Positions 47,101 through 64,000 of a DNA stretch of 64,000 bases are shown here, piece after piece. Below the pieces are notes generated by a model. That model saw only the letters and a list, made by a program, of their open reading frames with translations. It was not told the DNA's origin and did no database searches. A program made the translations under genes and the position numbers. Position 1 is the first letter of the stretch; each line of letters begins with the position of its first letter. Origin of the DNA: an uncultured Acidobacteriaceae bacterium (GTDB lineage: Bacteria > Acidobacteriota > Terriglobia > Terriglobales > Acidobacteriaceae); the NCBI GenBank assembly GCA_963806565.1, contig CAWDYE010000006.1:17618-81617 (forward strand), read 5' to 3'.

Positions 47101-47226
47101 GGACTGACGGGAATGAAAGAGCGAGCGGCGGCCATTGGCGGGACGTTGGAGATTCACAGCGAACCGGGGGTGGGAACGACAATCCGGCTGCGCGCGGCGA
47201 CGCCAAGAGAGACGAGGAGCAGTTGA
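44104..47226 (+). CDS. Sensor histidine kinase with propeller and Y_Y_Y domains (true start probably downstream)
   Basis: GxLWxGT repeats, YTNIKPGRYTFRV, RIAREIHDTLAQG, DDGQGF, GLTGMKERA. Confidence 0.92.
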   Translation: METGIGISSDSPHFPCAIPRLSNYCGVAQSDICMRLLPPIPVAHNHANPMDAAGEAARRLSLSGGTPGATALRGFLAAWLLSCGLHGLALEPITPLANYGRQSWGMENGLPQNTVQALVQTRDGFVWLGTEAGLVRFDGNSFAVFDKNSTPALPGNDVRCLLETHDGALWIGTSEGLARWKDGIVTDFTTRDGLPGNGILEFWETRDGVLMMWTDLGIAQQTGERFVKARNVDAWPHTALPSPGEPPGQVEFEEGLPNDVFMMGDRSTLTLVKGPKPPGIVTHLTVGKELPGSRIQVVFADREGSLWIGTNGGLARWVAGKVQRLPVTDPLATASILSLMEDHEGNLWVGTETGGLHILRDQRFRTVGAREGLSSDATTTVVEDWTGTLWVGTSGSGLNALRRSVNGSSAVRSYTVRNGLMSDVILSLAAAPNGDLWVGTPDGLNRIRGGKIDAFTSADGLPDDFIRSLLADADGSLWIGTRRGLTHWMGLKARATSSAQMETFTQANGLGSDLVGAMARDSRGELWVATLAGLSRLHSGKIDNFTTANGLSSNVVTALLPYGNGMLLIGTQEHGWNLWDGQHFTMETNGGLNQTTIHAILDDGSGHLWFATGNGIARCDFAVPATGKGAGCSQWIEFGTADGLRSREMATNSHPSAWRCRDGRLWFATPKGLVEIDPAHFPVNAVPPPVALERFAVDDVPQALHSGSSSLRVEAGHVHFQFDYAGLSFIAPQKVRYRFMLEGLDHGWTEAGTRRSAYYTNIKPGRYTFRVQAANNDGLWNTEGAALTFELRPHYYQTAWFYALLLAAVAGLVLLFLRLRLRRAEGEFRAVLGERNRIAREIHDTLAQGYVGISVQLEVLSELLRRNEAQAAAKHLDLIRGYVREGLDDARQSIWALRSQDSDETTLPVRLRRMVEAEGGKGLKAGFSLFGAYRPMPAETEREFLRVAQEALHNVKKHAGARHIFVQLEYEPEEIALEVRDDGQGFVIDWKQESASGHYGLTGMKERAAAIGGTLEIHSEPGVGTTIRLRAATPRETRSS

Positions 47227-47300
47227 GGTTTGTGGTTTTACGGTCTAAGGAACGAGACCTGGGGTAGCCGGAATTTGCGGTAGATACAGAAGGAGCAGGG

Positions 47301-47951
47301 GTGACCAAGAAATCGATTCGCGTGCTGGTTGTGGAAGATCACCACGTGGTGCGCCAGGGGCTGGTGGCGCTGTTGAACGTGGCAGAAGGCCTGGAAGTGG
47401 TGGGCGAGGCCGCGGACGGCGTGGAGGCCATCGCGGAGTTTCGCAAGCACCAGCCGGATGTCGCGCTCATCGATCTGCGGCTGCCGCGGCTCACCGGCGT
47501 CGAGGTCATCGAGCGCATTCGCATGGAGACGCCGCAGGCGCGCTTCATTGTGCTTACCACCTACGACGGCGACGAGGACATCTATCGCGCATTGCAGGCC
47601 GGCGCACGCGCCTACCTGCTCAAGGGCATGACCTCAGAAGAGTTGATCGCGACCATCCGCACGGTTCACGAGGGAAAATCGCACATTCCGCCGGCGATTG
47701 CGCAGAGGCTGGCCGAGCGCATGAGCACCGAGGAGCTGACGCCTCGCGAGTTCGACGTGCTGGAGCAGATTGTGCACGGCAAGAGCAACAAAGAGATTGC
47801 GACCGAACTGGAGATTTCAGAAGCTACAGTGAAGACCCACATCAACAACCTGCTCAGCAAACTGGGCGTAACAGACCGGACGCAGGCTGCTACGGCCGCC
47901 ATCCAACGCGGCATTGTTCCGCTCGAATCCTTAAGAAAGCCGAAGCCATGA
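47301..47951 (+). CDS. NarL/LuxR-family response regulator
   Basis: Receiver domain plus LTPREFDVL..GKSNKEIA..TVKTH. Confidence 0.95.
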   Translation: MTKKSIRVLVVEDHHVVRQGLVALLNVAEGLEVVGEAADGVEAIAEFRKHQPDVALIDLRLPRLTGVEVIERIRMETPQARFIVLTTYDGDEDIYRALQAGARAYLLKGMTSEELIATIRTVHEGKSHIPPAIAQRLAERMSTEELTPREFDVLEQIVHGKSNKEIATELEISEATVKTHINNLLSKLGVTDRTQAATAAIQRGIVPLESLRKPKP

Positions 47952-48505: not shown

Positions 48506-49885
48506 TCAAGGCTCCACGGTGATAGCTACGAGCATCGGCGAGGAAACCGTGAGGGATGAGACAAAGTCAATGGAAGTGATTTTTTCTTCCGGCAGCGGGT
48601 TCTTCCACGTGAATTTGATGAGCTGGGTCTTCATTCCGGCTCTGCGGGTTGCGGGATTGGAACCAAACCAAACTTGATCGGCCTTGGTGACGCGCCCTTC
48701 CGCTGGGTGTGCCCACCAGTCAAGTTCGTTCTCTCCATAAATCAGATCCGCGGTTCTCGTCTCACCGTTTTCGTAATGCATGACGTATTCGCCGATCTTC
48801 AATCCCGTCTCCGCGCCTACAAAGGCCGCAGCCTGAAGGAAATGCACCGCTTTCCCTTTGCGGCCTACCGGAATACCCATCACCGCCTCAGGCAAAGCCA
48901 GTCCGCTCACTTCAAGCGACTTGGTTCCTGCCAGTACAATCAAGCCGCGCACGTCGAACAGCACGCCTCCAAAGCTCTGCAATCCCTCAGGAATATCCTG
49001 CAGGTCATGTCCTGGATGGTTGAACCAGTCGTCATTGAGCGAGGCGCCATAAAATCTGGAAAGGTCCACCTGATCGGGAGTGGCTGAAGGATCTCTCGGC
49101 GGAATCGGATTCCAGGCTTTGATGGAATCGAACCACTCGTAGGTCCGATGCGCTTGATCCGGCTCAATTGTCATGGCGATCAGGAAGGGCGCGGCTTGCG
49201 TCTTGTTCGACACAAAATCCATCGTCTTGATCTCCACGCCGGGCAGAGGATTGTTCGCCGTGTATTTGAATATCTGTGTGGCTTTATCCGACCAAGCCGT
49301 CACAGCATCGGTCAAAACCGGTTCGGCGTTTCCGCTAAACGAATTCTTTATATTGCGGCCATAGATCAGCGGAATATTCTTCGTTTCTCCACCGGCATAA
49401 TGCAGAACATAATTGCCGATGACAGTGTCTACTTGGGCGTAGCCGACTGCGCCTTGAAGAAAATCAAGTTTTTCGCCCTTGTAATTGATGACAATGCCAT
49501 TCACGGCGTTGGGATGGACCGTGGCTTGAGAGCCTGCCAACTGAATCATTCCGCGAATATCGAATGCGGCTCTGGAAAAAGCATACACTCCCTGCGGCAA
49601 GGAACCGAGATGCCCGTCTTTCAGCGAAGACGTGTAATACGAGGTGAAATCCATTAAATCCGGGATGGCCTGCTTGCTCCTGATCGGGATTTGCAATGAG
49701 CTCGACGCAGAAATGGAATTGGATTTCGGGAGTTGGGGACTCGCATTTTGCGCATAGAGATGCATAGCGCTATCCAATGTAGCCGGCTCATGTTTTTTAT
49801 TTCTGCTCTGTTGCGCATGCGCTGTGATGGATGAAAAGAGTAGAGAGCAAAGGGAAAACAGAAAAACATATCTGGGTTTCATCAT
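48506..49885 (-). CDS. Secreted protein with an internally duplicated domain
   Basis: Signal peptide; FDxRGxIxLAG..FLQ.A..IGxYVxHY..GET..LIYG..PLP..I..DFVS occurs twice. Confidence 0.75.
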   Translation of the reverse strand: MMKPRYVFLFSLCSLLFSSITAHAQQSRNKKHEPATLDSAMHLYAQNASPQLPKSNSISASSSLQIPIRSKQAIPDLMDFTSYYTSSLKDGHLGSLPQGVYAFSRAAFDIRGMIQLAGSQATVHPNAVNGIVINYKGEKLDFLQGAVGYAQVDTVIGNYVLHYAGGETKNIPLIYGRNIKNSFSGNAEPVLTDAVTAWSDKATQIFKYTANNPLPGVEIKTMDFVSNKTQAAPFLIAMTIEPDQAHRTYEWFDSIKAWNPIPPRDPSATPDQVDLSRFYGASLNDDWFNHPGHDLQDIPEGLQSFGGVLFDVRGLIVLAGTKSLEVSGLALPEAVMGIPVGRKGKAVHFLQAAAFVGAETGLKIGEYVMHYENGETRTADLIYGENELDWWAHPAEGRVTKADQVWFGSNPATRRAGMKTQLIKFTWKNPLPEEKITSIDFVSSLTVSSPMLVAITVEP

Positions 49886-49987: not shown

Positions 49988-52018
49988 CTACGGCCGGCGC
50001 GGCTCGCCGGTTTGCAGGAAGGCGACTCCCGCAACCGTCTCCCCCGAAGCCAGCACGTTCCTCAGCCGCTCGGGATTGGCGCCGCTGCGGGCAGAGGCCG
50101 CTTTGAGCAGGCGCAACGCCGATGCTGGAGTGGTTCCTGGCGGCAAACGGAAGATCCACGGAATGTTGGCTGAGGTCAGTGTTTTGTCGCTGCTCAGCGC
50201 GACCACCGGAACAAAGGCCTTGAGCGCCAGTTGCTCGGCCAGGTGCGCGGCGTCGCGATCCAACGCGATGATGGCAAGCGCATGCTCGTCCATCAGCGCG
50301 TGAACCAACTGAGTTGAAGCCGCGCCCCAATTCTGATCGCTCTCCACGGTCTCGAGCTTCCACTCGCGGCCCCTCGTCGCGGCGGCCGCCAACTCTGCCT
50401 GCACCTCCGGCGACTGCGCAATCTCGGCTGCATGAGGCCCAAAGAGAACCACACGCACCGGGCCAGCCGGAACATCTGCGCGCTGCGGGCCGGCATAGTC
50501 CACGCCATCCTCGCCCACGCGCGCATAAGGTTGCGCGAGGGACGCAGAAGATTCCTGCCGCGCAAGCGGCGTCTGCCCCACCGCAGGTGGTTTCTCCATC
50601 GATGCAACGCGATACGTGAGCGCCCCGTTATGCACCGTGCCCAGGTACATGGGTGCGACATTTTTCTGGTTGGGGTCGAAGATCATGTGCCCGGTTACGC
50701 CGTCGTATTCTTCAATATCGGCCAGCGCATCGTGAATCCGCGCGCGATTCAATCCCGCCTTGCAGATCGAATCCAGCAGCATATTCATCGCGTCATAGGC
50801 CAGCGAGGCAAACTGCTCCGGTTTCTCGTGGAAGCGCGCTTCAAATCTCTTGTTGAAGTCGATCCACTTCGGATCGTTGCGCGAGGGATCGTAGGGGAAG
50901 ACGGCCTCAAAGCCTTCGGCGGCAGGCCCGGCTTCGGCCAGCAGCTCCGGCCCCAGCGTGCGATAAGAGCCGAAGACGCGCTGCTTCATACCCAGCGCCC
51001 GCATCTCTTTGAGAATCTCGGCTGTCTCCGCTTCGTCGGCCCAAAGAACAATCGCGTCCACACGCGAATCGCGTATCACCTTGAGCTGGCGCGTGAAATT
51101 CGTATCTCCGGGCAGGTACTTCTGCTCGATGACCACCGGGTGGCCCAGCCGAACCGAGGCCTGGCGAAACTTGACCACCCCCATGCGGCCGTAACGGTTG
51201 TTCACGCGCAGAATTCCCGCGCGCTTGAGGCCCAGATCAGAATAGATGTTGCGCGCCAAGGTGAAGCACTGCACGCGGTCGTCCTGCAGATCGGTGAAAT
51301 ACCAGGGAATAGATGTTTCTGGAATGGTGGGATCGGTGGAGGCGGAGTTGACGATGGGAATCTCGGCTTTCAGAGCAAGGCGCAGAATAATGTGCGTGGA
51401 CTCGGAGCTAATCGAGCCGAAGATCGCCCAGTCATGATCGTCGTAGATCATCTTTACGCCCACGTCGCCGGCGGAGCCCCAGATTGCCGCGTTGGTGGGC
51501 CGCTGCGTGCCGTAGACCGCGTTGGCCTGCCAGTTATTGTAGTCGTTGTGCAGCATCAGCTTGAAGGGCTTGCCGCCGTAGCCTCCGCGGGCGTTGGCCT
51601 CTTCCACAGCCAATTCGGCGCCGTGGAGCATGCGCTGGCCGAATAGCTGGCCGGGCGTGTCTTCAAGCGGCGCGAAGAAGCCGATGCGCACTTCCTTCAC
51701 GTTCTTCGGATCGGGAATCTCGCGGCTCGGTCCGGTGTAGATAGTGGGGCGGGTGTAGTAGAGATAGTAGGGCGTAACGAACTTCTCGTAGGGACTCAAA
51801 TCCTTGGGCTCGCCCGCATAAGGCTCAACCAGGCGATCCTTCGGCGGCCCCGGCGGATGCGCGCCGCACTCGCACGTGCCCTTGCCCGTGACCTTGACCG
51901 GACTCGCGTCCCGATCCGTGACCTGGCTGGAATACGGCGCGCCGCTCTGCCCGGCCGCGGGAAGCGCGCAGAGCGCGGCGATCGCGCATACCACTGCCAA
52001 CAACCATCCCTTGCGCAT
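49988..52018 (-). CDS. Type-1 periplasmic ligand-binding protein (LivJ-like) with a second partial domain
   Basis: Signal peptide; GAELAVEEANARGG, FASLAYDA, YDGVTGHMIFD. Confidence 0.8.
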   Translation of the reverse strand: MRKGWLLAVVCAIAALCALPAAGQSGAPYSSQVTDRDASPVKVTGKGTCECGAHPPGPPKDRLVEPYAGEPKDLSPYEKFVTPYYLYYTRPTIYTGPSREIPDPKNVKEVRIGFFAPLEDTPGQLFGQRMLHGAELAVEEANARGGYGGKPFKLMLHNDYNNWQANAVYGTQRPTNAAIWGSAGDVGVKMIYDDHDWAIFGSISSESTHIILRLALKAEIPIVNSASTDPTIPETSIPWYFTDLQDDRVQCFTLARNIYSDLGLKRAGILRVNNRYGRMGVVKFRQASVRLGHPVVIEQKYLPGDTNFTRQLKVIRDSRVDAIVLWADEAETAEILKEMRALGMKQRVFGSYRTLGPELLAEAGPAAEGFEAVFPYDPSRNDPKWIDFNKRFEARFHEKPEQFASLAYDAMNMLLDSICKAGLNRARIHDALADIEEYDGVTGHMIFDPNQKNVAPMYLGTVHNGALTYRVASMEKPPAVGQTPLARQESSASLAQPYARVGEDGVDYAGPQRADVPAGPVRVVLFGPHAAEIAQSPEVQAELAAAATRGREWKLETVESDQNWGAASTQLVHALMDEHALAIIALDRDAAHLAEQLALKAFVPVVALSSDKTLTSANIPWIFRLPPGTTPASALRLLKAASARSGANPERLRNVLASGETVAGVAFLQTGEPRRP

Positions 52019-52023
52019 GAGAA

Positions 52024-52524
52024 CTACTCCTTGTCTGCCGCTGCCCGATCCGTGCGGAACATGGCGATGGCCTCGATTTCGACAAGCAGCTCAGGCCGGC
52101 AGAGATGCGCTTGGATTCCGGTCGAGGCGGGAAGCGGATCCAGTCCCTGCTCCTTGAAGAATGCCGTGCGCCCGGCATTGAAGACATCATAGTCGCGATC
52201 GATGTCCCGCAGGTAGCAAGTGGTGCGCACGATATCGTGCCAGGTGGCGCCTTCGCTCTTCAGCAGGCCGGTGATGTTGTCGAAGGTCCGGCGCAACTGA
52301 GCCGGAAAGTCGCCGATGTGGACGCTCCGGCCGTGCTCGTCGATGGAAGCCGTGCCCGAGATCAGCAGGATAGTGACGTCGCCGATGTCGATCCTCGTGC
52401 CGCGCGAAAATGAGCTTGGCTTGGCGTATGCGTATGCTTCGTTGAGTACGCCGTGATTGGTGATGGCGCGCTTTTGGATGGGCGCGTGCGCGATGGCTTC
52501 CAGAATATCCGCAAATGCATTCAT
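52024..52524 (-). CDS. Rid/YjgF-family protein resembling the chorismatase C-terminal domain
   Basis: SFSRG, ISGTASI, LCRPELLVEIEA. Confidence 0.85.
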   Translation of the reverse strand: MNAFADILEAIAHAPIQKRAITNHGVLNEAYAYAKPSSFSRGTRIDIGDVTILLISGTASIDEHGRSVHIGDFPAQLRRTFDNITGLLKSEGATWHDIVRTTCYLRDIDRDYDVFNAGRTAFFKEQGLDPLPASTGIQAHLCRPELLVEIEAIAMFRTDRAAADKE

Positions 52525-52544
52525 GATTGCTGCTCCTTATGGAC

Positions 52545-53678
52545 TTATTGTTTTTGTCGAATCCCGTGGCTCAAACCCTTGGCGGTGGCGACCCAGATGT
52601 CGTCGCCTTGAAAGTCAATGCCGAGAATATAGTTGTGGGCCGGCGCGGTGGCGACCTCGACCGGCGTGATTTTGCCTTTTGCGTCCCGCACCCACATCTC
52701 CGGCTTGCCCGTCGTGAGCGAGGGCGTGTAGACGGCCCAGTTGACGCCGTCGTAGTAGGCCAGCCCCTTGTCGGTGCAGAACCAGGCGCGATTGGCGTCC
52801 ACGCCCTTTACGTAATTGATAAAGTTCGAGGGCAGGCCGCTGTCCTTGGTAAGAAAGTTGTGCCAGTAGCGGTGGTCGTAATGGCTGGCGCCGAAGTACG
52901 TGGCCACCCACAAAACCTTGTCCACGTAACTGACCGAGCTGACAATCTGGTGAATCAAGCCCTGATTCTTGTAGAGAACGATCTCGGTTTCGTCGTCGGG
53001 ATCTTCGTACTTGTCCCAGGTGCCGGTCGCCTGATTGTATTCGAGAACTCCTCCGCCCCAGATCGCGTAGTACACCATGCTGGGCGTGGCGGAAACGCCG
53101 TAGGCCCATATCTCGATCATGGGCGTGTTGCGCTCGTTGTAAAGCGACCACTCGCCGGTATCGAGGTTCAGGCGGCAGGCTCCGGCGGCTGTGGCTACCC
53201 AAACGTTATCGCCCTCCACGCTGACGCCGTAGACCACATCGTTGCTCAGCCCGGAGTTCAACTGCGTGAAGCTGTCGATGCGCCCGCCGGAGATGCGGCT
53301 CAAGCCCCCCATGGTGCCGGCCCACACGTCGCCGGTGCGCTTGTCCAGCGCCAGCGAGAGCACGGCACGATGCGCCAGGCCGTCTCTGGTGGTGAAGGTC
53401 TTCCACTTGCCGTTTTCGTAGAGCCCCAGCCCATTGTCCGTGCCCGCCCAGATGCGGTCGCCATCCACCAGCACCGAGTACACATGGTCGTCGGGCAGGC
53501 CGTTGGCGGTGGTGAAATTCTCAAAACGAAAGCGCGGCATCCGCGGTGGGGCAGACGGCGCTTGCGCGCCATGAGATTTTTGCGCTCCAGATGCTGGTGC
53601 TTGCGTTGCGAAAAGGACAGGCGCTACAGCCGCCAGCGCAGCGCCAATGATGAGCGTTTTCCATGCCAGTTTCTTCAT
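52545..53678 (-). CDS. Secreted beta-propeller protein (two-component-regulator propeller repeats)
   Basis: Signal peptide; xWxGTxxGL repeats; NSGLSND/DSGLPSN. Confidence 0.85.
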   Translation of the reverse strand: MKKLAWKTLIIGAALAAVAPVLFATQAPASGAQKSHGAQAPSAPPRMPRFRFENFTTANGLPDDHVYSVLVDGDRIWAGTDNGLGLYENGKWKTFTTRDGLAHRAVLSLALDKRTGDVWAGTMGGLSRISGGRIDSFTQLNSGLSNDVVYGVSVEGDNVWVATAAGACRLNLDTGEWSLYNERNTPMIEIWAYGVSATPSMVYYAIWGGGVLEYNQATGTWDKYEDPDDETEIVLYKNQGLIHQIVSSVSYVDKVLWVATYFGASHYDHRYWHNFLTKDSGLPSNFINYVKGVDANRAWFCTDKGLAYYDGVNWAVYTPSLTTGKPEMWVRDAKGKITPVEVATAPAHNYILGIDFQGDDIWVATAKGLSHGIRQKQ

Positions 53679-55585
53679 CGCGTCCTCAAGTACTCAATCA
53701 GATCGTTGAGTTCGTCCTTGGTCAGGTCGTTGGTGCGACCGTGCTTGTCATCGGGGTTATAGATCGTCCAGATCTCTTCCAGCGTGTGCGCCGAGCCGTC
53801 GTGCAGATAGGGCGCGGTGAGTGCGATGTTGGTCAGCGGCGCGGACTTGAATCGCCCCCCTGTGTCCGTGGCTTTGCGCGTTCCCACATCGAAGATCTTA
53901 TGATTGGTACCCTTGGGGCCGCTGTGGCAATAGGAGCAGCGGTTGCTCTCCGGAATCGGCTTGCCAAACTTGTCCACCGAGCGCTCGAATATCTCCTCGC
54001 CGCGCTCCTGCGCGGGCGTAAGCTCGCCGCCCGGCAGCTGCCAGCGGTTGGGCCGCGGCTCCAAACTGCGAATGTACGTCACCAGGTCGGCGAGCGTACG
54101 GTCGTCATACTGCTCCGAGCGCCAGAAGTATTTTTCCGTCCTCGGGCCGCACTCCGTAGGCAGGTTAGGATTCCCCCCATTCCACTTGTAAGGCTCGGTG
54201 TCCTTAACGCCCTCCAGCATCTTGTTATCCACAATGTCGAGGCCAAATCCGTCCGGCTCCAGATCCCAGGTGAGCCCGTCGAAGGTAGAGTCGATGTGGC
54301 AACTGGAGCAACTTATCTGTCCCTGGAAGGAGTAGCGCGCGGTGTAGAAGGCCCGTTCGCCGCGGCGCATCGTGGAATTCGTCTTCGGCCCGGCCAGCTT
54401 GACGGTCGAGGCCACGCGATCGGTGCGCGTGTCGATTACGCTGATCGTGTCCTCGAGGCGGTTGGCTACGAAGAGCTTGCTGCCGTCGAGGTTGAGCGCG
54501 AGGCCGCGAGGATTGTGCCCCACGGGGATGCGGGCAATTACGTAATTGGCGCTGGCGGCAAGGTCATAGGCAAAGGAGCCTGATTCCGGGCGCGGGCGCG
54601 AGTGGATGAAGCGCAACAGGCGCGGCAGGTCGATAACCATGACGCACTCCGAGCCGCCGATGGTGACGTAAAGGCGCGACTTGTTTGGCGCTATAGCCAC
54701 GCCGAATGGCTGTGAGGCATAGCGCTCGAGTTCGTCGAGCGGCACTTCGACGGGCTTGCCCACATCCGCGCCAAAGAGCGTGAGCGTGTAAGCGAATGCG
54801 CCGCCGTGCTCCAGATGCGCCAGCGGCACGAGATTCTTGGGGTGATATTCGGCCACCACACCCAGCCGTCCATCGGATGAGAACGCCAGATGAAAAACGC
54901 CCGCGATGCTGTGCAGTGGAATGCGATCCACCACCTCGGCCCGTGCCGTTTCGATCACCGTAATCTCCGACTCCGGCGCGATTCGATTATCGTGATCGGT
55001 CGGCACACGCGGTGAATTAGGATAAATGTGCGTCGCGTAAACCCGGCCACCATCCGGAGAAATCGTCAGATAGCTTGCGCCGCGCCCGGCCACCAGCCGT
55101 TTTTCTACCTCGCCAGTATGGGCATTCAGGACGGCCACATCGTCGGAGATGCGATTGGCCACGTACAGGCGCTTGCCGGCGCGATCCTCCACCACGCCAG
55201 ACGGCTCCGCGCCAACGCGCCAGGTGGCTACCACGGAAAGCGATTGCGTATCAATGACCGAGAGGGTGTCATCCCGGGAGTTGGTAACGTACAGGCGATC
55301 GCCTGAGGGCGAGAGCGAGATGCCGCGCGGTACGCGGCCCACGGCGATATTCTTAATCACCGCGTAGCTCGTCGCATCCAGCACTCTCACCTCTTCGCTC
55401 TGCTGGCATAGCACGTAGAGGCGCGATCCATCGGGCGAGAGCAGAATCTCGAGTGGCGAAGCGTAGTCCACAGCATCGGCCTCGCTCGCGCGCACCGGGC
55501 GATCCGCCCAGAGCGCAGCCACCAGCAGCGCCACGGCCAGCGCCGTCAGCCCCGTGCCCATCGCGGTTTGTATGCGCCGGTTCAC
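53675..55585 (-). CDS. YVTN beta-propeller fused to a di-haem cytochrome c peroxidase-like domain
   Basis: RLYVxNxxxDxxxVID repeats; CSSCH and CSYCH; TAPYLHDGS..TLEE. Confidence 0.88.
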   Translation of the reverse strand: MNRRIQTAMGTGLTALAVALLVAALWADRPVRASEADAVDYASPLEILLSPDGSRLYVLCQQSEEVRVLDATSYAVIKNIAVGRVPRGISLSPSGDRLYVTNSRDDTLSVIDTQSLSVVATWRVGAEPSGVVEDRAGKRLYVANRISDDVAVLNAHTGEVEKRLVAGRGASYLTISPDGGRVYATHIYPNSPRVPTDHDNRIAPESEITVIETARAEVVDRIPLHSIAGVFHLAFSSDGRLGVVAEYHPKNLVPLAHLEHGGAFAYTLTLFGADVGKPVEVPLDELERYASQPFGVAIAPNKSRLYVTIGGSECVMVIDLPRLLRFIHSRPRPESGSFAYDLAASANYVIARIPVGHNPRGLALNLDGSKLFVANRLEDTISVIDTRTDRVASTVKLAGPKTNSTMRRGERAFYTARYSFQGQISCSSCHIDSTFDGLTWDLEPDGFGLDIVDNKMLEGVKDTEPYKWNGGNPNLPTECGPRTEKYFWRSEQYDDRTLADLVTYIRSLEPRPNRWQLPGGELTPAQERGEEIFERSVDKFGKPIPESNRCSYCHSGPKGTNHKIFDVGTRKATDTGGRFKSAPLTNIALTAPYLHDGSAHTLEEIWTIYNPDDKHGRTNDLTKDELNDLIEYLRTR

Positions 55586-57321
55586 TTCGGTTTCCTTTCT
55601 CCCGGCTCCTGCACGGTGATTACACGGTCAACACTCAGCTTCTCCAGCGTCTGCTCGATTCCACTGGGCCAGTGAATGATCAGCTTGTCGATGGTGGTTG
55701 CTGCACCAAGTCCGAAGTGCAGGCGTTCATCGTTCTGCGAGAGATAGCCGGAGCCGGCCACACGTTCCGCTGTTTGGCGCTTGCCCGCGGCAAAAACTTC
55801 AACGCGCGCGCCAATGCCGTCGCGATTGCTTTTGGCATTCGGGCCGGAAGCAGAGTTATGATCGCCAGGCCGCATCGCGCCGATGAGCTTGATGTCGATC
55901 CAGTGGCCGGTGTTGGTGGAGACGTTGCGCAGCAGCGTTCCTCGTGCGCCGAGATTCACTACAAAGGCACCCACCTTGCCGTTGTTTTCGTAGTCGGCAA
56001 AACACGCGCCGCGCGAGGTGGTGCGCGTGTTGATCACCTGCCCTGCGGTCTCCGAGACATCCGCGAACTTCCCGTTGCCCAGTCCGCGAAAGAGCGTGTG
56101 CTCCTCGGGAATAAGATGAATCAACCCGCCGTGAAAGATGAGAATGTCGAGCAGGCCGTCGTTATCGAAGTCGTAAACGCCCGAGCCCCAGCTCACATAC
56201 TGCGCGTTGGTCTGAGAGACGCCGTTCGATGCGCCCATGTCCTCAAAGCCCTGCTTGCCTATATTGCGCAGCAGCCGGTTATAGTGGCCATCGGAGACCC
56301 ACAGGTCCAGCATTCCGCGGCCCTCGAAGTCGGCAAAGACCGGGCCCATCGATGAAGTCGATTCGCCATTCTGCCCGTAGGCCGTGCCCGTATCGTTGGC
56401 TACATCTTCGAAGGTTCCATCGTGCTTGTTGTGGAAAAGAAAGTTTTCCGTGCGGTCGTTGGAAACGTAGATATCGTCCCAGCCGTCGTTGTCGAAGTCC
56501 GCCGCGGTCACGCCCATGGTGCGGCCCACGTAGGCGCCGATGCCCGACTTGTCGCTCACATCCGTAAAGGTTCCATCGCAGTTGTTGTGATACAACTTGT
56601 TGGTCTCGCCCTCGTAGTCCAGCGGCCCCGGATAGTTGTCGGCGGCATAATACGCGCGGTATTTGGGATCGAACTTGACGTAGCGGCCCACGAACAGGTC
56701 CACGCATCCGTCCCTGTCGTAGTCCAGCCAGGTTGAGCTGATCGACCAGCCGTCCACATTGATGCCGGCCTTCTTCGTGACGTCGGTGAAGGTGCCGTTG
56801 CCGTTGTTGTGATAAAGAATCACTTTGCCATAGCCGGTCACCAGCAGATCGACATATCCGTCGTTGTCATAATCGGCCGCCGTCACGGCCATTCCATATA
56901 AATCCGGATCAAGGCCGGATTTCTCCGTCACGTCGGTAAAGGTGCCGTTGCCGTTGTTGCGATAGAGGTGATTATGCGGCAGCGGATCGGGCTTCACTTT
57001 GAGCGGATAGGGATGCATCGAGTCGTCCAGCGGCCGTCCGTTGATCACGTAGAGAGACTCCAGGCCGGAGTTGTTGTAATCGAACCAGATGCAGCCCGCT
57101 CCGGTGCCTTCGAGCAGCGAACCCAGTTGCCGCGAGCCAAAGCTGTGCGTAAAGTGGATGTCAGCCTTGTCGCTGGCATCTTCAAAGCGAATCACCGGCG
57201 CCACCTGCGGTGGGGCAGACGCCGCTTGCACGCCATGAATGGATTGTGCAGGTAGCAGCGGAGCAGGCGGCGCCGCGGCCAGGGAAGCAACTCCAAATAA
57301 AAGAAGAAAGCGATAATTCAT
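55582..57321 (-). CDS. CRTAC1-family FG-GAP/ASPIC-UnbV protein
   Basis: Signal peptide MNYRFLLLF; DYDNDG repeats; GSGYLSQNDERLHFGLG. Confidence 0.92.
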   Translation of the reverse strand: MNYRFLLLFGVASLAAAPPAPLLPAQSIHGVQAASAPPQVAPVIRFEDASDKADIHFTHSFGSRQLGSLLEGTGAGCIWFDYNNSGLESLYVINGRPLDDSMHPYPLKVKPDPLPHNHLYRNNGNGTFTDVTEKSGLDPDLYGMAVTAADYDNDGYVDLLVTGYGKVILYHNNGNGTFTDVTKKAGINVDGWSISSTWLDYDRDGCVDLFVGRYVKFDPKYRAYYAADNYPGPLDYEGETNKLYHNNCDGTFTDVSDKSGIGAYVGRTMGVTAADFDNDGWDDIYVSNDRTENFLFHNKHDGTFEDVANDTGTAYGQNGESTSSMGPVFADFEGRGMLDLWVSDGHYNRLLRNIGKQGFEDMGASNGVSQTNAQYVSWGSGVYDFDNDGLLDILIFHGGLIHLIPEEHTLFRGLGNGKFADVSETAGQVINTRTTSRGACFADYENNGKVGAFVVNLGARGTLLRNVSTNTGHWIDIKLIGAMRPGDHNSASGPNAKSNRDGIGARVEVFAAGKRQTAERVAGSGYLSQNDERLHFGLGAATTIDKLIIHWPSGIEQTLEKLSVDRVITVQEPGERKPK

Positions 57322-57322
57322 C

Positions 57323-58777
57323 TCAGTTGCCTCCCGGCTTACCACCCCCCGGACGAAGACCTGTCCGTGGGGACCCCGGCTTGCCTTGCTGCGCCGCGCT
57401 TGTAAACTTCGCGCCGGTCAGATCGGCCGGCGTGGTCGAGCGCAACAGCACTGCCGGCACGCGATTCTCCGATGCGCGCTCCGGTCCCGTGTGGCATCCA
57501 ACGCAGATGCGCTGCTCGCCACTGCGAATCCAGAACCATCCGTGCTCCTGGCGCACCACCGCGCCCTTTTTATCCAACAGCGCAAAGCGAATAGGCTTGT
57601 CGGCAGGAACCTTGACGAAAAAAGATCCGTCTATCTCGACTGGCGCAGTGCCCATAATGATTGTCCGGCCGTTGGCTGTCATCGTCTCCAACCGCACCGA
57701 TGCGGGAGTCTTCTTCAAATCTCCTTCGCGCGACAGGCGTACATCGAGCGCAAGCAAGTTGGCATAATCCCATGGGTGCAGCCCTGAGGGATGACGCTTA
57801 GGCGAGATGCGCGGCGCAACCAGAACCGGCTCGACAAGATTTTCGCCAGCTAAAGTTAAAACGGTATGCAATGCAGGCGAGCCGGGCTTCCACATTCTGA
57901 GCGCGTAATGCGTTCCGGATCCGGCGCGCGCGCTCACCAGCCACGCGCCCGAGGCCAACTCGGCAATCGCGCCGGCGTACTCAACATGCGGAGCAATGAC
58001 GGGCTGCTCGTGCGCCAGCGGCGAAGTGAAGCGCGCCAGCGAAGCTCCATGGGTGAATACCACGTCGCCCGAAGCCAACTGCCTTCCGCCCCAACGCCCC
58101 CGGCCGTGATCGCAACGGTACGACTCGACTCCCGAGCCATCGGCGTAGACCAGATAAAGTTCAGGCGTCGCGCCAATGCCGAGGGGAAAGCCGGCTTCAA
58201 AGAGAATGCGCCCATCGGCGAGCACATCATCGGGGAAGGCGCTGGCCTGCACATAGGTAAGCGGCAACACTCCCGGTCCGGCCGTCGGATTCAGGAACGT
58301 GTATCCCCGCAGATGACCGTCTTCGGCGGACTTCAGTTGAAATCCCCACGGCGCGCGCTGTGCCCAGAGCATCCGCCCGCCTGGCAGATAGAACGGGCGC
58401 ACGGCATCGGTTGTGGTTGCGATTAACTTGCGCAGGGAGTGATCGGCCAGCGTCAATTCCCAAATCTGCCAGGGATCACCCGCCTCTTTCTTGCCCGCGA
58501 ACAGCACTGTCTTGCCGTCGAAGGAGACATTTGCGTCAGCAGTAGCGGCAAAGCCCGTCACCAGAGGCTCCGCCTTGCCGTTATGAACCAGCAAGAGCTG
58601 CGCTCCTTTGGGAAAACGCTCTCCTCCGCGCAAGGCAGCCAGGGGCTCGTAAACGGGAGCGGCAGTGACGATGATGTCTGTGGATGGAGCCTGCGCCGCG
58701 TCCGGTAAAAATCCGCAAACCGGAAGCAGCAGGCCAATCGACGCGGCAGCCGCCAGGAATCTGGCCGGGAATCTCAT
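57323..58777 (-). CDS. Hydrazine-synthase-alpha-like haem c protein
   Basis: Signal peptide; TolB-like propeller start; [32 protein letters not shown] middle-domain-like pattern; ATGA coupling to the upstream gene. Confidence 0.7.
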
Positions 58778-59676
58778 CCGACAGCCTCCATGGAACAAGA
58801 CTCTACGGTCTCGCGCCACGGCTGTACCCGCTCGCGCTGCGTCGTCCCTCGAAGAGCCAGATACGGGGCAATATCGGCCATCATGCTGTCGAATGCGGCG
58901 AAATCCAGCGATTGTTCACCATCGCTCCATGCCTTGTCCGGATGGGGATGCACCTCGACCAGCAGGCCATCCGCGCCGGCGGCCACCGCAATGCGCGCCA
59001 GCGGGGGAACCAGGTCGCGACGGCCAGCGGCGTGGCTGGGGTCGGCAATCACCGGAAGATGCGAGACCTGCTTGAGCAACACAATGGCGGCCGCGTCGAA
59101 AGTGTTTCGCATCGACGTTTCAAATGTGCGAATGCCGCGCTCGCAGAGAATGACCTGCGGGTTGCCGTGGTCCAGAATGCACTGTGCAGAGCGCAACAAA
59201 TCGGCCACCGTGGCCACCATGCCGCGCTTCAACAGCACGGGCCGCCCGGAGTGCGCTGCCGCTTCAAGCAGCGCGTAGTTTTCCATGTTGCGTGAGCCGA
59301 TCTGCAGAATGTCGGCGTATTCCGCCACCGTTGGCACGTCCTCTTCCGACATGACTTCGGTCACGATAGCCAGGCCGCTTTCCTCCCGCGCATGGGCCAG
59401 CATCTTGAGGCCTTCCAAACCAAGCCCTTGAAATGCGTAAGGGGAACTGCGCGGCTTGAAAGCGCCTCCACGCAGAATGCGCGCGCCCGCGCGGCGAACA
59501 TGATCAGCCGTTGCCAGCAGCTGGGATTCTGTCTCCACCGAGCAAGGCCCAGCCATGGTGACAAATTCATCGCCACCGATCTCAAAGTCCATCACCTGCA
59601 CGATGGTTTGCTGAAGCCGGGCGCTCTTCAGCACATCGGGAGTTTCGGCAAATCGGTCGCGCCAATCTTCACACAC
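58774..59676 (-). CDS. aroF: DAHP synthase type I-beta without a regulatory domain
   Basis: [41 protein letters not shown]. Confidence 0.9.
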
Positions 59677-59841: not shown

Positions 59842-61266
59842 CTATAGTGCCATCGGCGGCGGACGGTAGCCGAAGGCTGCATCCACAATGGCCGCGACGC
59901 CCAGCGCGGTTTCATCGTGAAAAGGTCGAGCAACGATCTGCACGCCAATCGGCAATCCTGACCCACCACCGTCATCTGTCCGTCCGACGGGAACCACCGC
60001 GGCCGGCGCGGCCAGCGTGTTGAACCACTGCGTGTGCCGCACGGCATCCAAATACTCTACGGTCCGGTCTTCAACGGTCCACGCGCGCTCCCCATGGCGG
60101 AAGGCGGGAATGCTGGCCACCGGGCACAGGAGCACCGGATACCCGCTCATCTCCGCGAGCGTCTTCGAGCGCAGCAAGTCCAGTTCAGCCCAGGCATTGA
60201 GCAGTTCGACGGCCTTTAGCGGCGGCACGGCAGCGGAGAAGCCGAGAAACTCGCTGAAGATGGGGCTCAGTTGATGCTCCCGGCCGCGAATCTCCGGCTC
60301 ATAGAACATGGCCCCGCACTGCACAAAAAACTTCCACCACAACTTCCGCAGCAGCTCCAGCGTGCGCGGACGGAAGGGCTCTACGCGAAAACCAGCGTCG
60401 CGCAGCGCTGCCGCCGCGGCCTGCACCGCGGCCCGCGTCTCCGGCGTGACGGGCACCAGGCCATCATCCTCAAAAAATCCAATGGTGTTGGCGCGCAATT
60501 CATCGATACTCGGCTCGCGCAGCACAATGGGAGGACTCGCCGGATCGCGCGGGTCCTGGCCGTTGAGCGCGCGAAAAAGCAGCGCAACGTCGGCCATGGT
60601 GCGCGCCATCGGGCCAATGGCGCCGAGCGTCGAAAACGGACCCACGCAAGGCGGCAAGTGTCCGCGTCCCGGAATCCGCCCCGGCGTGGGCTTGAGCGAG
60701 CAGATGCCGGTAAAGTGCGCGGGCACGCGCACCGAGCCGCCGCTGTCGCTGCCCAGGCCCGCTGAAGAAAGCCCCGCCGCAATGGCTGCCGACTCGCCGC
60801 CGCTCGATCCACCCGGAGTTCGATCAACGTCCCATGGGTTGTTCGTACGCCCATGCAACAGGTTTGCTGTCTCGTAGGCCATCAGGAACTCCGGGCAGTT
60901 GGTAGTGCCCAGAATCAACGCTCCGGCGGCGCGGAGACGCGCAACGACGACAGCGTCTTCCGTGGGAATTTCGCCCTGGTGCAGCAGGCTGCCAATCTCG
61001 CACTTGAATCCTCGTGTTGAGATCGACGATTTCACGGTCACCGGCAATCCGAACAACGGCCTGCGGGACCGCGTTCCTCGCCACGCATCGTGCTTCCGCG
61101 CCCTCTCCCGCACACGCTCAGCATCGAAGTCGGCGAATACATTTAATTGCGGATTCAGCCGCTCGATCTGCCGGATGTGCGCCTCGGTCAACTCCGTCAC
61201 GGAGAGTTTGCCCGCGCGCAAAAGCTCCAGTTGCCGTGTGGCCGGCTCAATCGTTATGCCGTTCAT
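59842..61266 (-). CDS. Amidase-signature family enzyme
   Basis: PVTVKS, PGGSSGGESAA, GSDSGGSVR; start at MNGITIE. Confidence 0.93.
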   Translation of the reverse strand: MNGITIEPATRQLELLRAGKLSVTELTEAHIRQIERLNPQLNVFADFDAERVRERARKHDAWRGTRSRRPLFGLPVTVKSSISTRGFKCEIGSLLHQGEIPTEDAVVVARLRAAGALILGTTNCPEFLMAYETANLLHGRTNNPWDVDRTPGGSSGGESAAIAAGLSSAGLGSDSGGSVRVPAHFTGICSLKPTPGRIPGRGHLPPCVGPFSTLGAIGPMARTMADVALLFRALNGQDPRDPASPPIVLREPSIDELRANTIGFFEDDGLVPVTPETRAAVQAAAAALRDAGFRVEPFRPRTLELLRKLWWKFFVQCGAMFYEPEIRGREHQLSPIFSEFLGFSAAVPPLKAVELLNAWAELDLLRSKTLAEMSGYPVLLCPVASIPAFRHGERAWTVEDRTVEYLDAVRHTQWFNTLAAPAAVVPVGRTDDGGGSGLPIGVQIVARPFHDETALGVAAIVDAAFGYRPPPMAL

Positions 61267-61629: not shown

Positions 61630-64000
61630 TTATGGCCTCGTATCCTCGGCCGGTGTCGCGTGCCGGTCGCGGTAATCAAAACGATACACGCGGTTAGGCT
61701 CGCCCGAGTCGAAGCGATCATTCCAATTCAACTGGTACTCCAGGGACTGCGCGTCCTGCGGATATTCCTCAGAGTCAGGATACGGATAGGCGCTCATTTT
61801 ATGAAAGGGCAACTGCGCCACGGTGAAGGGCGATGCATCCCACCAGTCCATGTCCTTGACGAATCCATTGGCGTAAAAGAAGTAATCGCGCTTCCAATGC
61901 GCGGGCATCGCGGGCAGCTTGGTCGCGTCGAACTCGGCGGCAATCTCCTCGCCGCTGCCGAAGATCACAAAGCGGTCGTCAATGCTCTTCAGCAACGGCG
62001 TCACGTCGCCCATGCGCGTGTAGCTGCCGCGCTCATGCTGAAACGGCCCGGTCAAGCTAACGCGGTCATAATCGTAGTCGAGATCGCCGGGGCTTGCGCC
62101 TTCAATCTGCTTCGGATAGCCGCGGAAGTGCAGTGTGGCCAGCGATAGCGGGACTTCCGCGGTACGCGCTTCACCCTCGACGTTGTTATCGATCAGAACT
62201 TGATCCCAATAAATTTCGAGATTGGTGACGAGCCGGATGCGCCGCGCGCCTGCGGGCAGCTTGCCGCTGAGGTCCACCACAATGGTGCGCTCCAGGCCCG
62301 CAGGGAATCCCACATCATCGGCAATGCGCTTCCATTCACCATTCGGCATCTGCGCCTCAACATAGGGCGAGATGGGCTTCACTCCCGCCTTCCACGCGGC
62401 ATAGAGCGAAGTCGCGCTGAAGTAGTTCACATAGCCGGTCATCAGCAGCCGAAGCTGAGCGCTTTGCTGTATTTCTCCCAAATCAAGCGTGAGCGCATGA
62501 ATATTCGCAAAACCATCGTAAGGCAGCGGCGTAAATCCGCTGGCGAATTTGTGATCGCGCTTGCTCAACAGGTCCAACACATCGCGCCCTTCGCCGTCCC
62601 ACGCGCCCACCGGCAGCCGCGCTCCCTCTGTAGCCACTACGCGCCCCGAGGCAAACGGCGGATCGTCGAGGAAGCGTTCGTCGGGATTGACCTCGACACT
62701 CTCGGGATGATCGACCGCAACCAGCCGCAACTGGTCGATGTAGTTGACCTCCTCCATCGGCTCCATGAAGCGCAAGCTCAGCTTGCCCTTTACCGGCGCA
62801 AGCGCGTCGCCATCAACTTTGATCCATTCGCCGGGGTTGGGCGTGTTGCGCCGCGTGGGCGTGAACCAGTGGCCCACCACCGCCGCGCCGATTACGTCCG
62901 TGACCAGCTTGTATTTGTGCCCGTTCCACGCAAACAGCACCGGGCAGGAACTTCCGCGACGGTCAACCTCCTTCATGGCAATCACCGGCTGATGCGGCAA
63001 GTCGATCTCATCCTGCAAAACACCGGTCGGCCACAAGATACGCAGCAGGTCAATGTGGTTCGCATCTCCCAGACCCACAAGAATCTGCGGAGGCCCCTGC
63101 GTCTGATAGCCCGAGGCTCCGGCCAGCTCCCACTTCTGCCAGTGGCCGCTGGCGAAGATCTCCACCTTCACGCCCAGCGCCGTCTTGTTATCCGCAAAGC
63201 CGATCAGGTCCAGGTGGACGGAGTGATTCTTGTTTCCGCCCACGTTGCGCAGCAGTACCGGCGGCGCGTTCAACTGCGTCACAATCAAATCAGCGGCGCC
63301 GTTGTCATCGACGGCAATTAGTCCGCGCGGCGCAATCAATTTCACGCGGTCCAGGCCCAGCGCACGGCTCACATCTTCAAAAGTCCCATCGCCGCGATTG
63401 CGGAAGACGCGCACTTGCGGCCCTGCCTTGGTCTCCAAAACCGCCGCCAGATCTATCCAGCCGTCGTTGTCAATGTCGACAGCCGTTACGCCCCAACCGC
63501 GCGTCGCATCGTGTAGCGGCAACTCCACGCGCTCAAATCGTCGGCCAATATGATTCGGCCCCTCGACATTGCGCCACAGCGTAAGCCCTGGCGCGCCGGC
63601 GTGCGTGACGGCAATGTCCATCCAGCCGTCCTTGTTGTAGTCCAGCACCGCAATGCCCACGGTAGCCGGCAGCTTCACCACATTCCTGCCAGACAATGTG
63701 GCGACTTCCAGAGCCGGCGTCTCTTTGAATTGCTCACCTCCCGAGTAGAGAGCCTGCGTCGGATACTTGCCCTCGCGCGGATTCACATAGATGAGCGGCG
63801 CAGGTCCGTCACCGGTCACGGCAATGTCCACTGCGCGGTCGTTGTTGAAGTCGGTGAGAATCGCAGCGTTCGTCTTGCCGCTCCCGCCCAATCCTGTTGG
63901 ATCCGTCCACTCAGTAAATGTCTTGTTGCCGTTGTTACGCCATAAAACATTCGGTGATCCGCCCGCCGTCAGCGGCGCTCCCGTCAGGAAGAGATCCAGG
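61630..64000 (-). CDS. CRTAC1-like FG-GAP/ASPIC-UnbV protein with C-terminal extension (5' end outside the window)
   Basis: Frame open to the window edge; DFNND/DYNKD/DIDND repeats; GASGYQTQ..GLG, WPTG. Confidence 0.88.
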   Translation of the reverse strand, partial: LDLFLTGAPLTAGGSPNVLWRNNGNKTFTEWTDPTGLGGSGKTNAAILTDFNNDRAVDIAVTGDGPAPLIYVNPREGKYPTQALYSGGEQFKETPALEVATLSGRNVVKLPATVGIAVLDYNKDGWMDIAVTHAGAPGLTLWRNVEGPNHIGRRFERVELPLHDATRGWGVTAVDIDNDGWIDLAAVLETKAGPQVRVFRNRGDGTFEDVSRALGLDRVKLIAPRGLIAVDDNGAADLIVTQLNAPPVLLRNVGGNKNHSVHLDLIGFADNKTALGVKVEIFASGHWQKWELAGASGYQTQGPPQILVGLGDANHIDLLRILWPTGVLQDEIDLPHQPVIAMKEVDRRGSSCPVLFAWNGHKYKLVTDVIGAAVVGHWFTPTRRNTPNPGEWIKVDGDALAPVKGKLSLRFMEPMEEVNYIDQLRLVAVDHPESVEVNPDERFLDDPPFASGRVVATEGARLPVGAWDGEGRDVLDLLSKRDHKFASGFTPLPYDGFANIHALTLDLGEIQQSAQLRLLMTGYVNYFSATSLYAAWKAGVKPISPYVEAQMPNGEWKRIADDVGFPAGLERTIVVDLSGKLPAGARRIRLVTNLEIYWDQVLIDNNVEGEARTAEVPLSLATLHFRGYPKQIEGASPGDLDYDYDRVSLTGPFQHERGSYTRMGDVTPLLKSIDDRFVIFGSGEEIAAEFDATKLPAMPAHWKRDYFFYANGFVKDMDWWDASPFTVAQLPFHKMSAYPYPDSEEYPQDAQSLEYQLNWNDRFDSGEPNRVYRFDYRDRHATPAEDTRP

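Follow-up and report, generated by a model that had tools for sequence, protein, structure and literature searches.

Hydrazine synthase (HZS) of anaerobic ammonium-oxidising (anammox) bacteria was long believed to have no relatives, and gene clusters encoding homologues of it in other bacteria offer the only view of its origin. What such a cluster does in a host of another kind is the question raised by an operon in a 64,000-nucleotide stretch of DNA (the window) from an uncultured Acidobacteriaceae bacterium (GenBank assembly GCA_963806565.1, contig CAWDYE010000006.1). An earlier reading of the bare sequence (the original prediction) had described this operon, at positions 49988-59676 of the window, as encoding a periplasmic redox complex of HZS-like architecture in an apparently non-anammox host. 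Having followed up that reading with profile, structure and synteny searches, we are highly confident that the operon is a non-anammox HZS homologue cluster. Its gene set recurs across phyla, usually in the company of a DAHP synthase (DAHPS) and a Rid protein of a special subfamily.

The operon consists of seven co-oriented, tightly spaced open reading frames (ORFs) on the minus strand, all lying where the original prediction had placed them. In the order of transcription, the predicted products are:

58774..59676, minus strand: type I-beta DAHP synthase without a regulatory domain (DAHP_synth_1, 244.8 bits; NF006421; TIGR01361)
57323..58777, minus strand: HZS-alpha-like exported protein, a beta-propeller plus an HZS_alpha middle domain (PF18582), with one c-type haem
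55582..57321, minus strand: exported FG-GAP/ASPIC (CRTAC1-like) propeller protein (FG-GAP_3, 149.9 bits; UnbV_ASPIC, 84.7 bits)
53675..55585, minus strand: HZS beta-gamma-like fusion, a YVTN beta-propeller plus a di-haem domain of the cytochrome c peroxidase (CCP)/MauG type (YVTN repeats; matches to hydrazine_BC, hydrazine_beta and hydrazine_gamma)
52545..53678, minus strand: exported single Reg_prop beta-propeller of the sensor-domain type (Reg_prop, 41.6 bits)
52024..52524, minus strand: Rid/YjgF-fold protein of a special subfamily, cytoplasmic (Ribonuc_L-PSP, 64 bits)
49988..52018, minus strand: exported type-I solute-binding protein with one full Peripla_BP_6 domain and part of a second (167.7 bits, two stretches)

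The junctions, read in the sequence, agree with the overlaps and 1-20-nucleotide gaps first described. The DAHPS stop and the alpha-like start overlap in an ATGA (start codon ATG at 58777; MRFPARF...), a single nucleotide separates the alpha-like stop from the FG-GAP/ASPIC start (TGA-g-ATG), and the FG-GAP/ASPIC and beta-gamma genes overlap in a GTGA, the beta-gamma and Reg_prop genes in an ATGA. The Reg_prop and Rid genes are 20 nt apart, with an AAGGAG site inside the spacer; Rid and the binding-protein gene are 5 nt apart, likewise with an AAGGAG site. Profile searches and a count of CxxCH motifs also returned the families and haem motifs originally named: the alpha-like protein carries CVGCH at residue 425 and the fusion CSSCH at residue 426 and CSYCH at residue 550, while the same count found no haem motif in the remaining operon products. 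Export leaders were called from N-terminal hydrophobicity and inspection by eye. Over the first 46 residues, the highest hydrophobicity of any 12-residue stretch was 2.4-3.0 for the alpha-like, FG-GAP/ASPIC, beta-gamma, Reg_prop and binding proteins, as opposed to 0.8 for DAHPS and 1.2 for Rid, matching the five signal peptides predicted at the outset.

The 80 best loci for the alpha-like protein (68-85% identical) belong nearly all to Terracidiphilus or to metagenome-assembled genomes (MAGs) of Acidobacteriaceae, and come from peat, fen, palsa and forest soil. Judged by these relatives, the host is a Terracidiphilus-like member of the Acidobacteriaceae, outside the anammox lineage (Brocadiia), as had been supposed.

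Relationship of the haem proteins to hydrazine synthase

The alpha-like protein scored above the Pfam threshold for HZS_alpha (PF18582, 66.3 bits; cut-off 26.6). In NCBIfam its sole match was hydrazine_alpha, at 53.7 bits versus a cut-off of 800, and in a PDB sequence search it was 5c2v_A alone (46 bits), aligned over two stretches, the N-terminal propeller and the surroundings of the haem motif. An AlphaFold2 model built from a 27-sequence alignment (predicted local distance difference test score, pLDDT, 77.7; predicted template-modelling score, pTM, 0.76) was compared with the PDB by Foldseek. HZS alpha 5c2v_A was the top match (E 1.6e-20; template-modelling score, TM, 0.70 over the query), followed by TolB propellers (E ~3e-10, TM 0.43). 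By sequence and predicted fold, the protein is a true but distant homologue of HZS alpha.

Its haem domains and ligands differ from those of HZS alpha. The CxGCH motif is invariant in the alpha-family alignments, and the protein has only this one CxxCH, at residue 425 of 484, before a tail that is disordered in the model and ends ~55 residues past the motif. Since the chain stops so soon after its only haem motif, the second haem domain (alpha-II, in HZS the C-terminal domain with a bis-His haem) is missing, as the original prediction had noted. An 11-residue stretch at the haem motif aligns with CSGCHYGSYRG of HZS; no tyrosine stands at the aligned position, and the Tyr591 ligand is thus absent.

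The fusion aligned with both further HZS subunits: with HZS beta (5c2v_B, E 2.4e-41) over its full length, including the helical insertion in blade six, and with HZS gamma (5c2v_C, E 1.4e-21). Its top two NCBIfam matches were hydrazine-synthase models. The scores were 189.8 for hydrazine_BC (cut-off 1250), 166.6 for hydrazine_beta (560) and 85.2 for hydrazine_gamma (625), hydrazine_BC being an exception model and the other two, like hydrazine_alpha, equivalog models. A single-sequence AlphaFold2 model of the fusion reached a pLDDT of 50.3 and was set aside in favour of alignment to chains B and C of 5C2V. These alignments indicate that the fusion, too, is a true but distant homologue, of HZS beta and gamma.

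Both CxxCH motifs of the fusion are invariant in the family alignment. Its YKWNG aligns with FRHEG of HZS gamma, replacing gamma-His144, a residue close to haem gamma-I in HZS, by a tryptophan that is near-invariant in the family and characteristic of cytochrome c peroxidases and MauG. A cysteine of the fusion aligns with gamma-Cys165 (PTECG versus DRVCG); it occurs in the Terracidiphilus group only, the other homologues having D, E or A. The C-terminal haem domain gave sequence matches to CCP_MauG, to MbnH (6e1c) and to several CCP structures. Against Pfam CCP_MauG the whole protein reached 33.1 bits (cut-off 25.6) with no single stretch passing alone, and the MauG and MbnH family models gave 26-57 bits (cut-offs 363-444).

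The HZS-like architecture of the original prediction is thereby upheld. Of the reactions it had listed, N-N bond formation is unlikely, since the operon proteins lack the residues by which hydrazine synthesis is defined. With these residues, the low model scores and the host considered together, the proteins very probably do not make hydrazine.

Recurrence of the gene set across phyla

Where the contig allows a view, all 80 of the 80 close loci are syntenic. The alpha-like family is much wider, with 2843 clusters at 50% identity (E <= 1e-3), or 208 at E <= 1e-30. To reach distant synteny, we seeded a genome scan with a 29%-identical alpha member and scored the ORFs of each locus against the proteins of the window. 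This returned 16 distant loci with the same gene set, namely FG-GAP/ASPIC, alpha, beta-gamma, Reg_prop propeller, one or two binding proteins and usually Rid and DAHPS. They come from Bacteroidota (Flavobacteriaceae, Bacteroidales), Bryobacterales, other Acidobacteriota, Latescibacterota, Acidimicrobiia, Gemmatimonadota, KSB1 and an unclassified bacterium. The set is thus kept together in at least six phyla plus two unplaced lineages, with its order shuffled: FG-GAP stands before or after alpha, and Rid and DAHPS lie inside the cluster, after it, or upstream on the other strand. Given the HZS_alpha match and this recurrence, the outcome that the original prediction had named as refuting it (no domain match, no co-conservation) did not arise. 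In Planctomycetota and Bacteroidales, many long proteins with an HZS_alpha domain showed no trace of the module context.

Identity to the window proteins across phyla was highest for Rid, the best-conserved component (57-69%; 39% for one domain of a multi-domain form in locus L095), followed by DAHPS (46-56%), the Reg_prop propeller (42-50%), FG-GAP (41-50%), beta-gamma (34-41%), the binding protein (33-43%) and alpha (25-30%, in full-length matches).

The haem complement varies from locus to locus. A second haem domain is present in the alphas of L092, L096 and L159, and some module beta-gammas carry one more haem motif at the N-terminal end. The beta-gammas at L089:11563-14118, L091:11513-14083 and L093:11574-14111 are extended C-terminally by a c554-type multihaem region, and a separate c554-type multihaem gene lies at L095:3603-4823. 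In L096, CcmE/A/B/C cytochrome maturation genes are inserted within the cluster (L096:11212-13724). The flanks of the distant loci held no other recurrent gene beyond cytochrome c maturation genes, the c554-type multihaem gene and assorted regulators, and no transporter genes were seen beside the module except for CcmABC cytochrome c maturation genes in one locus.

Among the further exported partners, the FG-GAP/ASPIC protein had a single match in the PDB sequence search, cartilage acidic protein 1 (9etn). The Reg_prop propeller, present in every complete module, had its best PDB matches in hybrid two-component sensors of Bacteroides, namely in their periplasmic domains (4a2l, E 1e-23). The nearest solved structures to the binding protein are Leu/Ile/Val-type amino-acid binding proteins (4gnr, 3hut, 3td9), and its two units are two separate genes in other loci.

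A profile search of 401 Acidobacteriota genomes found alpha in 24 of them and in 20 of 227 genera. Going by this scatter, the module is accessory and horizontally spread. Given how common it is in peat and soil Acidobacteria, anaerobic Bacteroidota, Latescibacterota, Gemmatimonadota and others, an environmentally weighty periplasmic redox activity may be hidden here.

The DAHP synthase and Rid pair, and the genes around the operon

The operon DAHPS passed the cut-offs of NF006421 (403.9; 335) and TIGR01361 (365; 267.75) and contains the KPRS and metal-site motifs (GPCSVE, KPRSSPY and DPSH), which assigns it by profile and motif to type I-beta. The window's genome (3.33 Mb in six contigs, rated 100% complete) has five DAHP_synth_1 genes: one of the AroG type, two I-beta with an N-terminal extension, a KDO8P synthase, and the operon I-beta gene without the extension. 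We read the extensions of the two other I-beta copies as regulatory domains, and the operon enzyme as a putatively unregulated extra copy. All but one of ten other module genomes that were searched likewise hold further DAHPS-family copies. In a maximum-likelihood tree, nine module-linked DAHPS from distant loci, representing at least five phyla, formed one clade (support 88/76).

The Rid protein departs from RidA at its active site. In an alignment to E. coli YjgF it has a serine (DPLPASTGIQA) in place of the catalytic arginine (Arg105 in E. coli, the Arg of 'fpaRs'), and this serine is kept in nine of ten aligned module Rid sequences, the exception being the multi-domain form of L095. The arginine is essential for imine hydrolysis by RidA, and ~10% of RidA-type proteins have serine instead (Niehaus et al., PMC4433059). 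Scores against the RidA, RutC and chorismatase models were all far below cut-off (45.8 for the RidA model TIGR00004; cut-off 106), and the protein carries a conserved N-terminal extension. Several other genomes encode multi-domain Rid proteins of 410-510 aa. Those of 420-510 aa at L095:7341-8609, L199:9907-11253 and L197:8823-10355, in other modules or beside a DAHPS, have two or three tandem Rid domains, which recalls the build of chorismatases. Multi-domain forms of 410-450 aa in sister modules reached 40 bits across the greater part of the chorismatase model, the L095 protein, from a Latescibacterota module, aligning weakly along most of it.

Two lines of evidence tie the pair to the haem genes. 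It is module-linked in at least five phyla plus two unplaced lineages, in varied position and on either strand. And when the same 401 genomes were searched with a profile of the Rid subfamily, it was found in 23 of the 24 alpha-positive and 11 of the 377 other genomes (Fisher p = 4e-28, uncorrected for relatedness). In three alpha-negative Acidobacteriota genomes Rid lies directly beside DAHPS (L192:9816-11396, L193:9051-10597, L199:9907-12088) among unrelated neighbours (an MFS transporter, TonB-dependent receptors, a Ser/Thr kinase). We read Rid and DAHPS as a functional pair of the shikimate route that has repeatedly been attached to the haem module, and consider their functional coupling to the haem complex likely. 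No polyketide, non-ribosomal peptide synthetase or pigment genes are present beside the operon pair. As a separate observation, a genome of the window's genus without the module has, at L194:7940-11199, a close Rid orthologue next to a 2-oxoglutarate-Fe(II) oxygenase gene, ~1 kb from a UbiA-family prenyltransferase.

Upstream of the operon stand two further co-oriented genes, syntenic in nearly all of the 80 related loci:

59842..61266, minus strand: amidase-signature enzyme, cytoplasmic, without a hydrophobic leader (Pfam Amidase, 337.7 bits)
61630..64000, minus strand, running past the window end: second, larger FG-GAP/ASPIC (CRTAC1-like) protein (FG-GAP_3, 72 bits; UnbV_ASPIC, 42 bits)

The larger FG-GAP/ASPIC gene was found upstream in 77 of the 80 loci, and a similar large paralogue lies beside the module in the Bacteroidota loci L082-L085 and in L096. 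The transcription unit probably starts further upstream than the seven genes and takes in this one. We rejected the amidase as a core member, its linkage being confined to Acidobacteriaceae loci and absent from the module in other phyla; by this pattern it is a lineage-specific addition to the unit.

On the other side, the plus-strand genes at 44104-47951, convergent to the operon, encode a 1040-aa Reg_prop/Y_Y_Y histidine kinase and a LuxR-type response regulator. Part of the kinase's sensor domain shares 37-40% identity with the operon Reg_prop propeller. Considered as dedicated regulators, the two genes do not qualify as core, being adjacent in ~24 of the 80 close relatives and in none of the distant loci. 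Between them and the operon, 48506-49885 (minus strand) encodes an exported 459-aa protein with two similar halves and zero Pfam or NCBIfam matches, in a patch of low GC content (0.54 versus ~0.61). This gene was rejected as part of the operon: as all 80 related loci lack it, it is an insertion that separates the operon from the genes downstream. Another Acidobacteriota MAG (L091) has a homologue (525 bits) close to its module. Elsewhere in the genome, contig C2 encodes multihaem cytochromes with 11, 11, 10, 5 and 5 CxxCH motifs (1541535-1545746, 753514-759464, 1057441-1060356), one of the 11-haem proteins being fused to a membrane domain.

Proposed function and comparison with known systems

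What, then, might the complex do? On balance, we lean towards a two-site haem enzyme located in the periplasm and making use of a compound derived from chorismate. Co-conservation and the analogy with HZS suggest that the exported proteins form one periplasmic enzyme built like HZS. A CCP/MauG-type di-haem unit on the YVTN propeller and a single His-ligated c-haem on the alpha-like subunit would act in sequence on a small molecule brought by the orphan binding proteins, and the CRTAC1-like and Reg_prop propellers would serve as structural or substrate-handling subunits. Because the di-haem unit keeps the tryptophan of peroxidases and MauG, the first step is more likely a peroxide- or electron-driven oxidation than a reduction of nitric oxide (NO). 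DAHPS would raise chorismate flux; starting from chorismate or an intermediate close to it, the Rid-fold enzyme would make an aromatic compound to serve the periplasmic enzyme as co-substrate, mediator or cofactor. Taken by themselves, an aromatic co-substrate is a tentative suggestion, and we are doubtful about peroxidase-type chemistry to a similar degree. A bolder version holds that the eight-gene set (HZS-alpha-like, CRTAC1-like, beta-gamma fusion, Reg_prop propeller, two orphan binding proteins, unregulated DAHP synthase and Ser-variant Rid) would be an unrecognised, widespread periplasmic haem enzyme system dependent on a chorismate-derived molecule from its own two-gene cytoplasmic unit. 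Rid would then be a new shikimate-pathway enzyme, the system a kind of HZS ancestor, and its chemistry, peroxide-driven or nitrogen-related, outside any enzyme family; that all of this holds is unlikely.

Several observations weigh against our preferred explanation. The solved proteins most similar to the binding protein have amino acids, not aromatic acids, as ligands. Against chorismatase TIGR04444, Rid, a single domain of 166 aa, reached 34.9 bits (cut-off 325), and its N-terminal extension, searched alone against the PDB for a chorismatase link, returned no match. Within the examined flank, neither a Rid nor a DAHPS gene was found in the Gemmatimonadota loci L097 and L098 and the Bacteroidales locus L083. 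The Terracidiphilus DAHPS pair branches outside the clade of the other module-linked enzymes, reflecting either a second recruitment or limited resolution. Lastly, with the cysteine at the gamma-Cys165 position limited to the Terracidiphilus group, haem chemistry may differ between clades.

That same cysteine, aligned with the residue that forms the third covalent link of the NO-reducing haem, favours in this lineage a nitrogen-oxide or hydroxylamine enzyme, whose di-haem site would reduce NO, nitrite or hydroxylamine while the alpha haem processes the product without making hydrazine, for detoxification or respiration. Common ancestry and two-site architecture with HZS, and the co-oriented upstream amidase of Acidobacteriaceae, which releases ammonia, point the same way. 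However, the CCP/MauG tryptophan replaces gamma-His144 family-wide, the extra cysteine is absent outside Terracidiphilus, the alpha tyrosine ligand is missing, and the flanks of the loci examined hold no recurrent nitrogen-cycle genes. As this explanation also gives no account of the conserved DAHPS, Rid, binding proteins and propellers, we hold it to be decidedly unlikely. A maturation system is conceivable as well: MauG and MbnH act on partner proteins, and a di-haem domain that matches both models and keeps the inter-haem tryptophan might oxidise residues of one of the several strictly co-conserved non-haem partners to a quinone or cross-link cofactor, the mature complex being a periplasmic dehydrogenase or oxidase. 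Low MauG/MbnH scores (26-57 bits versus cut-offs of 363-444), the lack of an identified candidate target residue and a DAHPS left without a role make this improbable.

It could also be argued that only the periplasmic genes form a unit, DAHPS and Rid being unrelated housekeeping neighbours kept by descent. Synteny within Acidobacteriaceae could indeed be inherited, and some distant modules lack the pair nearby; yet the pair's linkage in at least five phyla plus two unplaced lineages, at varied positions and on either strand, the extra unregulated nature of the DAHPS and the genome-by-genome co-occurrence of the Rid subfamily with alpha render such an accident very improbable. Even though HZS is the sole characterised relative of both haem subunits, a genuine but divergent hydrazine synthase or other N-N bond-forming enzyme, implying cryptic anammox-type chemistry in Acidobacteria, has next to no chance of being the answer. 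The scores stay far below the hydrazine models (53.7 versus 800 for alpha, 189.8 versus 1250 for beta-gamma), alpha-II and a Tyr591-type ligand are lacking, tryptophan replaces gamma-His144, and the host is Terracidiphilus-like; a published survey of HZS homologues reached the same conclusion (Hagglund et al. 2025, Genome Biol Evol, PMC12758564).

How does the proposed two-site haem enzyme, fed with a chorismate-derived compound, compare with systems already described? With anammox HZS (Kuenenia stuttgartiensis, 5C2V), the operon has in common the alpha fold of propeller and haem middle domain, the beta-type YVTN propeller with its blade-6 insertion and the gamma-type di-haem domain, and with Scalindua HZS the fusion of beta and gamma. 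Unlike anammox HZS, its alpha lacks the alpha-II domain and has the canonical CxxCH His as haem ligand where HZS has the Tyr591/Zn arrangement, gamma-His144 is replaced by tryptophan, gene order is reversed, and FG-GAP, Reg_prop, binding proteins, DAHPS and Rid are added in an Acidobacteria host. Di-haem CCP, MauG and MbnH likewise have two c-type haems with a conserved tryptophan between them, whereas in the operon this domain shares its chain with a seven-bladed YVTN propeller and comes with an HZS-alpha-like haem protein, and the fusion scores far under the curated MauG and MbnH cut-offs. For the cytoplasmic pair, secondary-metabolite clusters provide the parallel: in these, pathway-specific, feedback-insensitive DAHP synthases pair with chorismate-using enzymes (the FkbO/Hyg5/XanB2 chorismatases), and chorismatases are built from Rid-like domains. 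Here, too, an extra DAHPS without a regulatory domain lies beside a YjgF/Rid-fold protein, with multi-domain Rid in sister modules, although the window's Rid is single-domain and the operon partners are periplasmic haem proteins.

The closest counterparts are the clusters reported by Hagglund et al. (PMC12758564), the only paper returned by a literature search for HZS homologues in Acidobacteria. Searching GTDB and RefSeq, those authors described four non-anammox clades in which an alpha gene and a fused beta-gamma gene are co-localised; their hit tables include Terracidiphilus beta-gamma homologues. Cultivable carriers named there are Paludibaculum fermentans and Opitutus terrae. An FG-GAP (CRTAC1-family) gene separates alpha from beta-gamma in clades I and II; alphas of clades II and III lack haem alpha-II and ~100 C-terminal residues; and clade II has no extra haems in beta-gamma. 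The cluster is then followed by two genes for ABC substrate-binding proteins. The Tyr591 region is deleted, with a two-residue gap in all clade I-III homologues, tryptophan stands at gamma-His144, and the authors conclude that the homologues make no hydrazine (PMC12758564).

By gene order and haem content our operon fits the clade II type, matching on every feature compared with the published description, on which this assignment is based. The order alpha, FG-GAP, fused beta-gamma is the same, as are the alpha without haem alpha-II and its last ~100 residues, the two canonical beta-gamma haem motifs and no others, the tryptophan at gamma-His144 and the downstream substrate-binding protein genes. 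It differs in that the binding proteins are fused in one gene, that an amidase and a second FG-GAP gene lie upstream, and that the fusion has a cysteine at the gamma-Cys165 position, a clade I trait according to PMC12758564. A term search of that paper found no mention of DAHP synthase, the Rid protein or the Reg_prop propeller. While the arrangement of the haem genes is already published, what is new is that across phyla they are tied to a DAHP synthase of their own and to a Rid protein of a special subfamily, a linkage that provides a concrete experimental handle.

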